Part shown: one piece after another, positions 5,749-58,246 of the stretch | Layout of the letters: each line of letters opens with the position of its first letter | Position numbering within the stretch: position 1 is the stretch's first letter | Assembly: GCF_056712565.1 (NCBI RefSeq) | Contig: NZ_CM160072.1 | Strand: one strand, 5' to 3' | DNA length: 64,000 nt | Translations under genes and position numbers: made by a program | The notes under the pieces: model-generated | The model's database searches: none | Told to the model about the DNA's origin: nothing | What the model saw: the letters and a program-made list of their open reading frames with translations, nothing else

Positions 5749-6366
5749 GTGAGGAATATGAAAATGAAACAACAGTATCAGACCCGCTACGAATGGCTCC
5801 ACGAAAGCTACCAGAAATGGCTGACCGGCTTCACCCGGCACGCCGTATTCTGGGGCGTGTGTCATCCGAATATCTACTACTTCCATAATCTGACGCCCGG
5901 TTGGGTGTCATTCAATGGTGAAAAACCGGAGATTGCCATCGTACCCCAGAGCCTGCACCGGCTGATTTATGGCCCTGACAAACGGGCCACACCGCCCCTG
6001 GATGATGATCTGATAGTGAATTTATGCACCAGTGAACATCTGCTGGTTCATCATCCGATGCTGGAAGGCATTCTCCTGTCTGAATGTGAACGTCTGAGGC
6101 AGCGTTCTCTGGCAAATAAACTGATCAGCCTCTTCCGTCAGTTTGGTGGCACGGAGTTGCGCCTCAAACTGGTCTGGCTTTGCTGGCTTGATTTAATGAC
6201 CGGAAACTGCCTTGACGACTGGACGGAGAATCTGAAACGGAAATCAGAAAAAGAGCTGGAGGAATGGATCATCAACCGTCAGAAGCAGAGCGCAGCACTG
6301 ACGGATCTGATGGATCAGTACGTGCTCCTGTCATACCGCACAACGGTTGACGATAAGCGCACCTGA
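5749..6366 (+). CDS. Inovirus Gp2-like island protein (hypothetical)
   Basis: 205-aa ORF immediately after alpA, the position this family occupies in CP4-57/CP4-44-type islands. Confidence 0.6.
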   Translation: MRNMKMKQQYQTRYEWLHESYQKWLTGFTRHAVFWGVCHPNIYYFHNLTPGWVSFNGEKPEIAIVPQSLHRLIYGPDKRATPPLDDDLIVNLCTSEHLLVHHPMLEGILLSECERLRQRSLANKLISLFRQFGGTELRLKLVWLCWLDLMTGNCLDDWTENLKRKSEKELEEWIINRQKQSAALTDLMDQYVLLSYRTTVDDKRT

Positions 6367-52780: not shown

Positions 52781-52849
52781 GACTGTCCGGGCACATTTTT
52801 AGACTTTGTCATCAGTCTGAGCCTGCCATTGGCAGGCTCTGGTGTCCTT

Positions 52850-54193
52850 TTACGCTACCATGCTAATAATCAGCACAATAATCAGCCCAACCACGGAGTT
52901 GACCAGCTCCAGCAGACCCCAGGTTTTCAACGTGTCTTTTACTGACAGGTCAAAGTAACCTTTGAACAACCAGAAAGATGCATCGTTAATGTGGGTGAGG
53001 GTGTTGGAACCCGCAGCCGTCGCCAGTACCAGCAGCGCCGGATTCACGCCAACCAGCTGACCAGTTGCTGGATCTAGGATTGCAGCACTGATAATCCCGG
53101 CGGCGGTCATCGCCGAAACGACACCCTGACCCGTCGCCAGACGAATTAGCACAGTGATCAGCCATGCCATGATGTAGGGCGAGATATTGCCGTGGGACAT
53201 CAACATGCCGATGGTGTCGCCAATGCCGGTGTCGATGATGGTCTGCTTCAGCACGCCACCCGCACCGATGATCAGAATCACCATTGCAATACTCTTCACC
53301 GCGCTTTCAAAAGCGTTCATCACCCACTGCATGTCATGACCACGTGCGGTGCCAAAGAGTACGAATGCAACCACCATCGCAATAAACATTGCAATCGGCG
53401 AGGAACCGATAAAGTTAACCACTTCCCAGGCAGGGGTATCTTTTACCAGCCAGATATTGGCGATGGTGGTAGAGATCATAATGATCGCCGGGATCAGCGG
53501 CACCAGAATCGAAACGCCGAAAGAGGGCAGATTATTCATATCTACCGGTTGATCTGCTTTCAGGAATGATGGCGTTGGGCGCTCAAGATTGCCGAGGAAC
53601 TTCGGCAGGATCAGACCTGCGCAGATTACACTTGGGATCGTCACCAGTACGCCATAGATATAAACCATCCCCATATCCGCGCCATAAGCATTCACCAGCG
53701 CCACCGGACCCGGCTGCGGTGGGAACAGTGAATGTGCGGTAGTGGCAGCTGCTACTGCCGGGATCGCCAGTTTCAGGAACGGAATTTTAGCTTCGGCGGC
53801 AATAACAATAACCAGCGGCGCTAACATGATAAAGGCCACTTCATAGAACATCGCCAGACCAAAAATCAGGCCGATGATAATCACCGACAGCTGTACATAG
53901 CGCAGACCGAGACGCGCCAGCAGCGTATGCGCTATCTGGTGAGCCGCGCCGGAGTCGACCATCAATTTACCGATGACCGCACCGAACACCACGATGATAG
54001 CCAGTTCCCCCAGCGTGTTGCCGAAGCCCGCTTTCATAGTGTGCAGCAGCGACATCAAATCCATGCCCGCCAGCATCCCGACGGACAGCGCCGCCACCAA
54101 CAAAGCCACCATTGAATTGATTTTGAACTTCAAATTCAGTACCAGCATCAGACCAATGCCGAATACCACCCAGAGAATGTTAAGCACATGCAT
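52850..54193 (-). CDS. gntP: GntP-family transporter
   Basis: 447-aa membrane ORF, divergent from uxuA. Confidence 0.85.
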
Positions 54194-54254
54194 AACGTTT
54201 TACCTTACCTGGTTGAACCGTTGTTATTTTGGGCGATATGTTATGTAAATTGGT

Positions 54255-54368
54255 CAACCATTGTTGCGATGAATGTCACATCCTCTGATCAATAACCATC
54301 GATTACCCTTTGCTGCAATTTGCAGCAACAACCATGAGAGTGAAATTCTTGTGATGTGGTTAACCAAT
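54255..54368. promoter_or_regulatory. gntP-uxuA divergent control region with two TTGGT-N-ACCAA type palindromes (candidate UxuR/ExuR operators)
   Basis: AAATTGGTCAACCATTG (about 54257-54273) and GTGGTTAACCAATTT (about 54356-54370). Confidence 0.5.
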
Positions 54369-54532
54369 TTCAGAATTCGGGTTGACATGTCTTACCAAAA
54401 GGTAGAACTTATACGCCATCTCATCCGATGCAACGCCACGGCTGCGGTCTGGTTGTTCATCCGGATACCTAAACAACTCCAGGGTTCCGCGTCTCTTTGC
54501 TGTGGAACCCACTATGTGAAAGAGGAAAAATC

Positions 54533-55717
54533 ATGGAACAGACCTGGCGCTGGTACGGCCCAAACGATCCGGTTTCTTTAGCTGATGTCCGTCAGGCGGG
54601 CGCAACTGGCGTGGTTACCGCGCTGCACCATATCCCGAACGGCGAAGTATGGTCCGTTGAAGAGATCCTCAAACGCAAGGCGATCATTGAAGACGCAGGC
54701 CTGGTGTGGTCTGTCGTAGAAAGCGTGCCAATTCACGAAGATATCAAAACCCACACTGGCAACTATGAGCAGTGGATCGCTAACTATCAGCAGACTCTGC
54801 GCAACCTGGCGCAGTGTGGCATTCGCACCGTGTGCTACAACTTCATGCCGGTGCTCGACTGGACCCGTACTGACCTCGAATACGTGCTGCCAGACGGCTC
54901 CAAAGCTCTGCGCTTCGACCAGATCGAATTCGCTGCATTCGAAATGCATATCCTGAAACGCCCAGGCGCGGAAGCGGATTACACCGAAGAAGAAATTGCT
55001 CAGGCAGCTGAACGCTTCGCCACTATGAGCGATGAAGACAAAGCGCGTCTGACCCGTAACATCATTGCTGGTCTTCCGGGCGCGGAAGAAGGCTACACCC
55101 TCGACCAGTTCCGTAAACACCTGGAGCTGTACAAAGATATCGACAAAGCGAAGCTGCGCGAAAACTTTGCCGTCTTCCTGAAAGCGATTATTCCAGTTGC
55201 TGAAGAAGTCGGCGTGCGTATGGCTGTTCACCCGGACGATCCGCCGCGCCCGATCCTCGGCCTGCCGCGCATTGTTTCCACCATTGAAGATATGCAGTGG
55301 ATGGTTGATACCGTAAACAGCATGGCAAACGGTTTTACCATGTGCACCGGTTCCTACGGCGTGCGTGCTGACAACGATCTGGTTGATATGATCAAGCAGT
55401 TCGGTCCGCGTATTTACTTCACCCATCTGCGCTCCACCATGCGTGAAGATAACCCGAAAACCTTCCACGAAGCGGCGCACCTGAACGGTGACGTTGATAT
55501 GTACGAAGTGGTGAAAGCGATTGTTGAAGAAGAACACCGTCGTAAAGCGGAAGGCAAAGAAGACCTGATCCCGATGCGTCCGGACCACGGTCATCAGATG
55601 CTGGACGACCTGAAGAAGAAAACCAACCCAGGTTACTCCGCAATTGGTCGTCTGAAAGGCCTGGCCGAAGTTCGCGGTGTCGAACTGGCGATCCAGCGCG
55701 CTTTCTTTAGCCGTTAA
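54533..55717 (+). CDS. uxuA: D-mannonate dehydratase
   Basis: 394 aa from [28 protein letters not shown]... Confidence 0.95.
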
Positions 55718-55797: not shown

Positions 55798-57258
55798 ATG
55801 ACTACTATTGTTGACAGCAATCTGCCGGTTGCCCGCCCGTCATGGGATCATTCTCGTCTGGAATCACGCATTGTGCATCTCGGTTGCGGGGCGTTTCACC
55901 GCGCGCACCAGGCGCTGTATACCCATCATCTGCTGGAAAGCACCGACAGCGACTGGGGCATCTGCGAAGTTAACCTGATGCCAGGCAACGACCGCGTGCT
56001 GATCGAAAACCTGAAAAAACAGCAACTGCTGTACACCGTAGCGGAAAAAGGCGCAGAGAGCACCGAGCTGAAAATTATCGGTTCGATGAAAGAAGCGCTG
56101 CATCCGGAAATCGATGGCTGCGAAGGTATTCTCAACGCGATGGCGCGTCCGCAAACGGCGATTGTCTCTCTAACGGTCACGGAAAAAGGCTACTGCGCTG
56201 ATGCGGCAAGCGGTCAACTGGATCTCAATAACCCGCTGATCAAGCACGATCTGGAAAACCCGACTGCGCCGAAGTCCGCGATTGGTTACATCGTCGAAGC
56301 GTTGCGTCTGCGTCGTGAAAAAGGGTTGAAAGCGTTTACGGTGATGTCCTGCGATAACGTGCGTGAAAACGGTCATGTGGCGAAGGTCGCGGTACTGGGG
56401 CTGGCTCAGGCGCGTGACCCGCAGCTGGCGGCATGGATTGAAGAAAATGTCACCTTCCCGTGCACCATGGTTGACCGCATCGTTCCGGCGGCGACGCCAG
56501 AAACCATACAGGAAATTGCTGACCAGCTGGGTGTTTACGACCCGTGCGCCATTGCCTGCGAACCGTTCCGTCAGTGGGTGATTGAAGATAACTTCGTTAA
56601 TGGTCGCCCGGATTGGGATAAAGTGGGCGCACAGTTCGTTGCAGACGTTGTGCCGTTCGAAATGATGAAGCTGCGTATGCTGAACGGCAGCCACTCTTTT
56701 CTGGCGTACCTCGGTTACCTCGGCGGCTATGAAACCATTGCCGACACCGTGACTAACCCGGCTTATCGCAAAGCGGCCTTTGCCCTGATGATGCAGGAAC
56801 AAGCGCCAACGCTGTCGATGCCGGAAGGTACAGACCTGAACGCCTATGCGACGCTGCTGATCGAGCGTTTCAGCAACCCGTCTCTGCGTCACCGTACCTG
56901 GCAGATTGCGATGGACGGCAGCCAGAAGTTACCGCAGCGTCTGCTGGACCCGGTGCGTCTGCACCTGCAAAACGGCGGCAGCTGGCGTCACCTGGCGCTG
57001 GGCGTGGCTGGCTGGATGCGTTACACCCAGGGCGTGGATGAGCAGGGTAATGCCATTGACGTGGTCGACCCGATGCTGGCGGAGTTCCAGAAGATCAACG
57101 CGCAGTATCAGGGCGCAGACCGCGTGAAAGCGCTGCTGGGCCTGAGCGGTATTTTTGCCGATGATCTGCCGCAGAATGCCGACTTTGTTGGCGCAGTGAC
57201 GGCGGCATATCAGCAGCTGTGCGAACGCGGTGCGCGCGAGTGTGTGGCTGCGCTGTAA
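55798..57258 (+). CDS. uxuB: D-mannonate oxidoreductase (fructuronate reductase)
   Basis: 486-aa ORF, mannitol dehydrogenase family. Confidence 0.95.
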   Translation: MTTIVDSNLPVARPSWDHSRLESRIVHLGCGAFHRAHQALYTHHLLESTDSDWGICEVNLMPGNDRVLIENLKKQQLLYTVAEKGAESTELKIIGSMKEALHPEIDGCEGILNAMARPQTAIVSLTVTEKGYCADAASGQLDLNNPLIKHDLENPTAPKSAIGYIVEALRLRREKGLKAFTVMSCDNVRENGHVAKVAVLGLAQARDPQLAAWIEENVTFPCTMVDRIVPAATPETIQEIADQLGVYDPCAIACEPFRQWVIEDNFVNGRPDWDKVGAQFVADVVPFEMMKLRMLNGSHSFLAYLGYLGGYETIADTVTNPAYRKAAFALMMQEQAPTLSMPEGTDLNAYATLLIERFSNPSLRHRTWQIAMDGSQKLPQRLLDPVRLHLQNGGSWRHLALGVAGWMRYTQGVDEQGNAIDVVDPMLAEFQKINAQYQGADRVKALLGLSGIFADDLPQNADFVGAVTAAYQQLCERGARECVAAL

Positions 57259-57282
57259 CTAACTGATTACCCTACAGACTTA

Positions 57283-57327
57283 CTGGTCAATCAAACTGAT
57301 ATTTGGTTGACCAGTTTTCGTTTTTTT
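57283..57327 (+). terminator. Rho-independent terminator of uxuAB
   Basis: CTGGTCAA-loop-TTGACCAG followed by TTTTCGTTTTTTT. Confidence 0.75.
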
Positions 57328-57472: not shown

Positions 57473-58246
57473 ATGAAATCTGCCACCTCTGCGCAAAGAC
57501 CTTACCAGGAAGTCGGGGCGATGATCCGCGATCTGATCATAAAGACGCCGTACAATCCTGGCGAACGGCTGCCGCCGGAGCGTGAAATTGCAGAAATGCT
57601 TGATGTCACGCGGACGGTGGTACGTGAAGCGCTGATCATGCTGGAGATCAAAGGGCTGGTGGAAGTACGCCGGGGTGCCGGTATCTATGTTCTTGATAAC
57701 TCAGGCAGCCAGAACACAGACAGTCCGGATGCCAACGTCTGCAACGATGCCGGTCCTTTTGAGCTGTTACAGGCGCGGCAGTTATTGGAGAGCAACATCG
57801 CCGAGTTTGCCGCTTTGCAGGCTACCCGCGAAGATATCGTCAAAATGCGTCAGGCATTGCAACTGGAAGAGCGTGAACTGGCTTCCAGTGCGCCGGGCAG
57901 CAGCGAAAGCGGTGACATGCAGTTCCATCTCGCTATTGCCGAAGCAACGCATAACAGCATGCTGGTGGAGCTGTTCCGTCAGTCCTGGCAGTGGCGGGAA
58001 AACAATCCAATGTGGATCCAGTTGCACAGCCATCTGGATGACAGCCTGTATCGCAAAGAGTGGTTGGGCGATCACAAACAGATCCTCGCCGCGTTAATCA
58101 AAAAAGATGCCCGAGCGGCGAAGCTGGCAATGTGGCAGCATCTGGAAAACGTTAAGCAACGTCTGCTGGAATTCTCGAACGTTGACGATATTTATTTTGA
58201 TGGCTATCTGTTTGATTCATGGCCGCTGGATAAAGTCGACGCCTGA
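57473..58246 (+). CDS. uxuR: GntR/FadR-family regulator of hexuronate utilisation
   Basis: 257-aa ORF with N-terminal GntR HTH. Confidence 0.9.
   Translation: MKSATSAQRPYQEVGAMIRDLIIKTPYNPGERLPPEREIAEMLDVTRTVVREALIMLEIKGLVEVRRGAGIYVLDNSGSQNTDSPDANVCNDAGPFELLQARQLLESNIAEFAALQATREDIVKMRQALQLEERELASSAPGSSESGDMQFHLAIAEATHNSMLVELFRQSWQWRENNPMWIQLHSHLDDSLYRKEWLGDHKQILAALIKKDARAAKLAMWQHLENVKQRLLEFSNVDDIYFDGYLFDSWPLDKVDA

Follow-up and report, generated by a model that had tools for sequence, protein, structure and literature searches.

The UxuR motif has been known from comparative genomics for over 20 years, and its definition, together with that of the gntP operator, is ascribed to the papers of Rodionov in 2000, Bates Utz in 2004, Suvorova in 2011 and Blanco in 1986. 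Bates Utz et al. reportedly observed in 2004 the in vitro binding of UxuR to an operator that overlaps the gntP promoter, a complete loss of this binding with fructuronate, and a requirement of gntP for cAMP-CRP. These results, with a UxuR operator on the gntP promoter and a dependence on CRP, are exactly what the sequence described here suggests. Genomic SELEX with purified UxuR retrieved a single genomic target, the gntP/uxuA spacer, and glucuronate weakened the binding (PMC5934670), the resolution of this approach being the whole spacer and not single boxes. In deletion strains, loss of uxuR led to a strong increase of the UxuA protein and to a raised activity of the uxuAB promoter, whereas loss of exuR caused no noticeable change in the proteome (PMC9369180). 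Besides, both the gntP and the uxuAB transcripts were derepressed upon deletion of uxuR (PMC10016265).

Several operators of E. coli K-12 are close relatives of the two boxes that we describe below in the gntP/uxuA spacer. The uidR (AAATTGGTTAACCAATAG, with a perfect core), uidA (TGATTAGTTAACCAATTC) and uxuR (TATTTGGTTGACCAGTTT) operators share with both boxes the TTGGT-NN-ACCAA dyad and the A/T-rich flanks, and they likewise occupy promoter regions, in all cases of hexuronate or glucuronide genes. The uxuR and uidA operators are accompanied by a weaker second box 20 bp away, whereas the boxes between gntP and uxuA are 106 bp apart from centre to centre and each of them comes with a CRP site. 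An engineered counterpart is the synthetic operator AAATTGGTATACCAATTT of a fructuronate biosensor, which belongs to this dyad type too, is 18 bp long and confers UxuR repression when placed between the -35 and -10 elements, the repression being relieved by glucuronate feeding (PMC8092373). Full-text searches of the literature for the box sequences turned up this synthetic consensus alone. Its location in the -35/-10 interval is equivalent to that of box 1 in the putative gntP promoter. The natural boxes agree with AAATTGGTATACCAATTT at 14/18 and 13/18 positions, and a search of the window (the whole 64-kb stretch of DNA that was analysed) for sites with up to three mismatches to AAATTGGTATACCAATTT gave none, because the differences in the central NN and in the flanks total four to five. 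In addition, AAATTGGTATACCAATTT was described as a site of the uxuR promoter (PMC8092373), but the sequence upstream of uxuR in the window differs from it. The likeness to these characterised boxes speaks for the proposal, made in a preliminary description of this DNA, that the spacer harbors UxuR/ExuR operators.

The gntP/uxuA spacer and the uxu locus

The DNA around the spacer is 100% identical to that of E. coli K-12 MG1655, and positions 54194-54532 correspond exactly to the divergent intergenic spacer of gntP and uxuA, which is 339 bp long. The gene gntP (52850-54193, minus strand) encodes a GntP-family permease (NCBIfam NF007459, 909 bits), which has been described in the literature as the fructuronate transporter. 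On the plus strand, uxuA (54533-55717, with its ATG at 54533; NCBIfam TIGR00695) codes for mannonate dehydratase and uxuB (55798-57258; NCBIfam NF011611) for fructuronate reductase; these three genes are also annotated. The cognate repressor gene uxuR (57473-58246, plus strand) lies 3 kb downstream of the spacer and encodes the Uxu operon regulator of the GntR/FadR family (NCBIfam NF007588, 583 bits; Pfam GntR and FCD domains). The UxuR protein is also hit by the ExuR model with 252 bits, and the next-nearest family models are those of LldR and PdhR. An Rfam scan of the spacer returned no RNA families, and scanning it for consensus sigma-70 promoters and terminators gave no matches.

We consider it very probable that the two boxes are operators for UxuR, which would bind as a GntR/FadR-type dimer, and that they are probably also recognised by the paralogue ExuR. 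The reading as UxuR operators draws on the motif match, the position relative to promoters and CRP sites and the conservation across genera, all of which come from the present analysis, on the uxuR gene 3 kb downstream, and on the UxuR binding and derepression known from the SELEX and uxuR deletion literature. What is seen here is thus the already known, ordinary UxuR regulation of E. coli K-12, and the preliminary description is confirmed in its observation and supported in its interpretation. As the UxuR regulon of E. coli K-12 is already established to include gntP and uxuAB, the finding is of little importance as a discovery; it serves as a useful positive control, in that a reading of the sequence alone picked two functional operators correctly. 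Added by the present analysis are the compact architecture, in which both operators are paired with a CRP site of their own, and the antiquity of one operator module that appears to be common to Enterobacterales.

Sequence and type of the two boxes

Box 1, the gntP-proximal UxuR-type operator, spans 54247-54264 (AAATTGGTCAACCATTGT) with the core TTGGTCAACCAT at 54250-54261 and its centre at 54255.5. Box 2, the uxuA-proximal one, spans 54353-54370 (GATGTGGTTAACCAATTT) with the core GTGGTTAACCAA at 54356-54367 and its centre at 54361.5. The strings originally quoted for them, AAATTGGTCAACCATTG and GTGGTTAACCAATTT, are located at 54247-54263 and 54356-54370, respectively, and both boxes are handled here as 18-mers. 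They had been presented as TTGGT-N-ACCAA palindromes. Both strings are indeed present in the spacer, but the dyads are imperfect, with one core mismatch each (TTGGT-CA-ACCAt in box 1, gTGGT-TA-ACCAA in box 2), and their half-sites are separated by two nucleotides instead of one. In this corrected form both boxes have the features of UxuR/ExuR operators, namely an approximately 18-bp dyad with a TTGGT-NN-ACCAA core and A/T-rich flanks, a place in the promoter region of hexuronate genes in a genome that carries the regulator gene, and conservation between orthologous control regions that have diverged in the non-coding DNA around the boxes.

ExuR belongs to the same FadR subfamily and acts in the same pathway as its paralogue UxuR, and its box is related (GTGGTA..AACA). 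The promoters of uxaCA/exuT and of uxaB contain no TTGGT-NN-ACCAA within two mismatches, and a weak version is found upstream of exuR. Instead, the ExuR-regulated promoters (exuR, uxaB, uxaCA/exuT) carry AAAGTGGTA.AAC and reach scores of only 2.5-11.5 with the UxuR weight matrix described below. Judged by these sequence features, both boxes classify as UxuR-type rather than ExuR-type operators. Because ExuR-only promoters carry such a different-looking box, it is old genetics only that argues for the ExuR part of the operator assignment. Cross-regulation between ExuR and UxuR and the probable formation of heterodimers have been summarised (PMC9369180), and GTGGT, which forms the left half of the E. 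coli box 2, is similar to the AAAGTGGTA half-site common to the exuR and uxaB upstream regions. Both points would fit boxes that are mainly sites for ExuR or for ExuR-UxuR heterodimers, with UxuR alone being a minor occupant in vivo, at least of box 2. We regard this as improbable, in view of the selection of the spacer by purified UxuR by itself and of the differing outcomes of uxuR and exuR deletion cited above. Moreover, the GTGGT half is not conserved, as Citrobacter has TTTGGT and E. albertii TATGGT at this place, and the ExuR-only promoters are devoid of TTGGT-NN-ACCAA within two mismatches.

The half-sites TTGGT and ACCAA are also identical to those of the PdhR operator at the pdhR promoter, which is a perfect TTGGTAAGACCAA, and PdhR is a member of the FadR subfamily as well. 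Together with the rank of the PdhR and LldR models as the nearest ones to UxuR after ExuR, this would allow the boxes to be assigned to PdhR, LldR or another member of the FadR subfamily that has a TTGGT/ACCAA motif. We find such an assignment hardly credible, since gene context and the SELEX result point to UxuR. As for PdhR, its regulon is a different one, and the PdhR-type dyad has a spacer of 3 nt against 2 nt in both boxes; no TTGGT-N3-ACCAA match with up to two mismatches exists in 54194-54532, and the identity of the boxes as PdhR-type operators was ruled out on these two grounds.

Placement and significance of the boxes in the window

A generic inverted-repeat search of the spacer listed nothing for the boxes because their arms are only 5 bp long. 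The pattern TTGGTNNACCAA with at most one mismatch was seen three times in the window, with 2.7 occurrences expected per 64 kb. These numbers, the short arms with one mismatch each and the empty repeat search would suit the notion that the palindromes are functionless chance matches. All three pattern matches, however, fall into two spacers of the uxu locus, two of them between gntP and uxuA and one, at 57303-57314, between uxuB and uxuR. The two spacers make up 553 of the 64,000 bp, and the probability of such a placement of 3/3 matches is about 6e-7. The third match belongs to a pair of UxuR-type boxes upstream of uxuR (TTACTGGTCAATCAAACT and TATTTGGTTGACCAGTTT, 57280-57317), which lie 20 bp apart from centre to centre. 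As plain palindromes the boxes are thus too short to be significant, and the signal resides in the placement of the matches and in the wider motif.

The wider motif was captured in a weight matrix trained on sites that excluded both boxes as well as their orthologues. The training sites had been chosen with the TTGGTNNACCAA pattern, so that the matrix, although independent of the boxes under test, depends on this pattern. Among 63,983 positions of the window, box 2 ranked first with a score of 23.2, followed by the uxuR-upstream box with 21.0 and box 1 with 15.0 in third place; the two uxuR-upstream boxes scored 12.2 and 21.0 with the site left out of the training. For 100 random sequences of 64 kb, the mean of the best scores was 13.3 and the maximum 20.4. 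Box 2 outscores all 100 random controls, which makes it significant even against the window as a whole. For box 1, significance is reached only when its location is taken into account, at roughly 1.5e-3 for the 339-bp spacer, and its score alone falls within the range of the best chance match in 64 kb. With the experimental literature placing UxuR on the spacer and the conservation of the boxes across genera while the neighbouring DNA diverges (see below), the latter effectively refuting chance, we give the notion of chance matches practically no weight.

CRP sites, putative promoter elements and a model of repression

A CRP site directly abuts box 1 at 54265-54280 (TGCGATGAATGTCACA, centre 54272.5). 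It matches the TGTGA-N6-TCACA consensus at 9/10 positions, and 11 of its 16 columns are invariant in the spacer alignment. In ETEC H10407, the identical 16-mer was reported beneath a ChIP-seq peak of CRP at gntP/uxuA (PMC4287617). Besides, published CRP targets include gntP and uxuA, and multiple CRP sites were reported in the gntP-uxuAB spacer (PMC3105977). A second, CRP-like site at 54350-54365 (TGTGATGTGGTTAACC, centre 54357.5), which agrees with the consensus at 8/10 positions and overlaps box 2 by 13 bp, may be one of these reported sites, and its TGTGA half is conserved beside the box in several genera.

The failure of consensus promoter scans is usual for CRP-dependent promoters. As the consensus scan of the spacer had found nothing, we deduced promoter positions from CRP spacing and conservation. 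For gntP, sequence and spacing point to TAACAT at 54238-54243 on the minus strand as the putative -10 hexamer, the opposite strand of which, ATGTTA, is conserved in Escherichia and Citrobacter. Transcription of gntP would then start near 54231, and relative to this start the CRP site would lie at about -41.5, followed by box 1 at about -24.5 (approximately -33 to -16). The abutting CRP site thus combines the TGTGA-N6-TCACA dyad with the ChIP-seq occupancy of its 16-mer and, counted from this presumed start, with a class II distance, and it is likely to be a class II activator site for gntP. On the other side, a perfect consensus -35 hexamer, TTGACA (54382-54387, plus strand), begins 11 bp after the end of box 2 and is invariant in the spacer alignment. 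It is followed after 17 bp by GAACTT (54405-54410, plus strand) as a presumed, weak -10 hexamer, of which GAA and TT are conserved. With uxuA accordingly starting near 54417, the position would be about -55 for box 2 and about -60 for the CRP-like site.

From these positions a model of repression can be drawn, the exact steric mechanism of which would depend on the predicted start sites. Without inducer, a repressor on box 1 would cover the gntP promoter from approximately -33 to -16, between the class II CRP site and the -10 hexamer, and would thereby exclude RNA polymerase from it. A repressor on box 2 would sit immediately upstream of the uxuA -35 hexamer and over 13 of the 16 bp of the CRP-like site, so that CRP-dependent activation of uxuAB, and probably also upstream contacts of the polymerase (alpha subunit), would be blocked. 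Fructuronate or glucuronate would release the repressor and allow CRP to activate both divergent promoters, and the transporter and the catabolic enzymes would thus be induced together and only in the absence of glucose. Both boxes had previously been proposed as candidate operators placed to control both gntP and uxuAB. Control of both divergent promoters is upheld in this model, but with a division of labour, box 1 serving gntP and box 2 serving uxuAB. A location at about -55, as that of box 2, is unusual for simple steric repression, and anti-activation or help from another site is assumed here.

The overlap at box 2 also has to be weighed in another respect. As TGTGATGTGGTTAACC matches the CRP consensus at 8/10 positions, uxuA is CRP-dependent and several CRP sites were reported in the spacer, box 2 could essentially be a CRP site and not an operator, with UxuR binding to box 1 only and controlling uxuAB indirectly. 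This is very unlikely in our view, given that box 2 is the best match to the UxuR motif in 64 kb and that its conservation runs on through AATTT, past the CRP 16-mer. Moreover, near-identical boxes occur without TGTGA, for example the uidR operator given above and the second box in locus L046. We therefore retain box 2 as a UxuR operator that overlaps a candidate CRP site.

Conservation of the boxes

A scan with UxuA, using one genome per species, yielded 80 loci, and the gntP-uxuAB-uxuR arrangement with divergent gntP was present in E. albertii and Citrobacter. The spacers of E. coli K-12, one divergent E. coli, E. albertii and four Citrobacter were aligned. Invariant columns are strongly enriched in the boxes (29/36, compared with 95/303 elsewhere; Fisher p = 1.5e-8), amounting to 13/18 in box 1, with 11/12 in its core, and to 16/18 in box 2, whereas the stretch between the boxes has just 4 invariant columns out of 69. 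Among six diverse E. coli (96.8-99.1% identity), 20 SNPs were found in the spacer and none of them in the boxes, the CRP site or the -35 hexamer; as about two SNPs would be expected in the boxes by chance, their absence is weak when taken alone, and consistent rather than decisive. Searches of 5,426 E. coli genomes with 36-bp tiles revealed a frequent SNP at 54371, immediately outside box 2.

Orthologues of box 2 are found upstream of uxuA in many Enterobacterales, so that its conservation extends beyond the aligned genera. In Citrobacter, Enterobacter and Cedecea, the box is embedded upstream of uxuA in a module of the form TGTGA-TGGTTAACCAA-N11/12-TTGACA, which beyond Escherichia and Citrobacter, that is in Enterobacter and Cedecea, can be written TGTGA-t.TGGTTAACCAAtt-N11/12-TTGACA. 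In loci L007, L012, L013 and L020, 11-12 bp separate the box-2 orthologue from the hexamer TTGACA that follows it. Erwinia and Providencia have kept TGTGA and the box part, without TTGACA at that spacing. The gene facing uxuA in Enterobacter and Cedecea encodes an ExuT-like MFS transporter or something else. The recurrence of the box-2 module in genera with another divergent gene argues that box 2 is an old, conserved control element of uxuA, whichever transporter gene faces it. The module of box 2, CRP half-site and -35 hexamer would hence be ancient and common to Enterobacterales whatever transporter gene lies opposite.

Spacing of the operators and possible looping

Two operators and CRP are also combined in sugar regulons that are repressed through DNA looping, such as those of NagC at nagE-nagBACD, of GalR with OE and OI, and of the lac operators O1 and O3. 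As at gntP-uxuA, the two operators in these systems are roughly 90-115 bp apart and CRP sites lie between or beside them, and in the case of NagC the promoters are divergent as well. They differ from the present case in that UxuR is described as a homodimer (PMC8092373), that the operator spacing in other lineages is not uniform, and that looping at gntP-uxuA is only hypothesised. We found no evidence in the literature for UxuR tetramers or higher oligomers, nor any account there of looping as an established property of FadR-subfamily sugar-acid repressors. A tentative and rather doubtful idea is that UxuR dimers bound to the two operators act cooperatively by looping the DNA, the CRP sites and the two promoters being trapped in the loop. 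If it were true, repression of the transporter gene and of the catabolic operon would be coupled, and its confirmation would add mechanistic detail for a well-used biosensor repressor. The operator spacing of about ten helical turns gives a testable hint of selection on it.

This hint comes from the comparison of lineages. In six lineages of Enterobacterales a partner box is found 102-106 bp from the box-2 module, upstream of it in two and downstream in four, while the DNA between the partner box and the module is not conserved. The upstream partner beside gntP lies at 106 bp in Escherichia and at 104-105 bp in Citrobacter. The downstream partner in the uxuA leader lies at 106 bp in Enterobacter sp. 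R1, at 102 bp in Cedecea and Enterobacter Ag1, at 104 bp in Erwinia mallotivora and at 102 bp in E. psidii. Short box spacings of 20 bp and of 30-34 bp recur as well. These recurring spacings suggest binding on the same face of the helix and perhaps looping. Considerable evidence stands against it, however. A clustering by helical phase was nominally significant with a repeat of 10.3-10.5 bp and null with 11 bp, the distances and the lineages being non-independent. In other lineages the partner spacing is 115, 124, 135 or 142-144 bp. A metagenome scan with the Citrobacter/Erwinia form of box 2 identified four loci, two of them Citrobacter-like with 104 bp and two from new lineages with 115 and 135 bp, and the latter two spacings therefore weaken a strict rule of 102-106 bp.

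Operator-like elements in and around the gntP-uxuA region

The spacer of the uxuA core promoter contains a conserved half-site, ATGTCTTACCAA (54387-54398). It is separated by 31 bp from the centre of the UxuR-type operator on the uxuA side of the intergenic region, box 2 (54353-54370). Alignment of Escherichia with Citrobacter revealed that the uxuA -35 to -10 stretch is unusually conserved (33 of 44 columns), and full boxes were found 30-34 bp from the equivalent of box 2 in Providencia, in the comparison locus L020, in Enterobacter R1 and in Vibrionaceae. The half-site may represent a weak third operator. In the Vibrionaceae loci L051, L056, L063, L069 and L074, UxuR-type boxes form arrays of three to four, and the spacings between them (112-116 bp, 34 bp and 84-104 bp) are conserved. 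The arrays occupy a spacer located upstream of uxuA at a distance of about 2 kb, which shortens to about 0.5 kb in L074.

On the gntP side, the four Citrobacter loci (L007-L010) carry a third dyad, TTGGTTGAACCA(T), around position -238 as counted from the uxuA ATG. It lies 41 bp from box 1, the gntP-proximal operator (54247-54264 in K-12), in the direction of gntP, with a half-site about 20 bp along, between this dyad and box 1 (scores 10-12 on the UxuR weight matrix). The K-12 counterpart of the third dyad is TGGTTGAACCG in the gntP leader (54211-54221), which is degenerate and is better fitted with a 3-nt spacer.

The gntP gene does not adjoin uxuA in the E. coli strain SCPM-O-B-8794 (locus L005, 2435-4000), where the products of the divergent neighbours of uxuA resemble NanM (382 aa) and NanS (335 aa). 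The junction falls within the would-be gntP leader, and box 1, box 2 and the CRP site are all retained.

UxuR-type and possible ExuR-type boxes at related promoters

Two UxuR-type boxes with a spacing of 20 bp, scoring 12 and 21, were identified upstream of uxuR (57280-57317), an arrangement that would fit autoregulation. In K-12, uidA is preceded by a comparable pair, also 20 bp apart (6097-6134 of locus L003). The K-12 promoters linked to ExuR, namely those of exuR, uxaB and uxaC/exuT, share AAAGTGGTA.AA (L002 5606-5623, L004 5859-5876 and L002 3875-3892) rather than the symmetric UxuR dyad. A conserved TTGGTATAACAA is observed about 23 bp before uxuA in many uxuB<>uxuA spacers of the Enterobacter and Klebsiella types. 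Taken together, these two sequence patterns suggest that the UxuR and ExuR box types can be distinguished.

Other palindromic and structured elements

The perfect 9+1+9 palindrome TTGCTGCAA-T-TTGCAGCAA (54310-54328) lies between the two CRP-like sites, in the centre of the gntP/uxuA spacer, which is not conserved. Palindromes of this quality occur at six places in the window, compared with about 0.8 expected per 64 kb. No SNP was detected in it among the six E. coli strains compared. In the alignment it is decayed in one divergent E. coli and in E. albertii and missing from Citrobacter; a full-text search of the literature did not find the sequence in print. Another perfect palindrome, the GC-rich GAGCCTGCCATTGGCAGGCTC (52819-52839), lies a short way past the gntP stop codon and probably forms the gntP terminator hairpin.

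The uxuA 5' leader contains an insertion of about 80 bp (54432-54510), which in the alignment is confined to Escherichia and lacking in Citrobacter. Two hairpins, one of them GGGTTCC...GGAACCC, are predicted in the insertion (minimum free energy -38.1 kcal/mol, z = -2.2), and no Rfam match was obtained for it. The majority of the spacer's SNPs among the six E. coli strains are located in this insertion.
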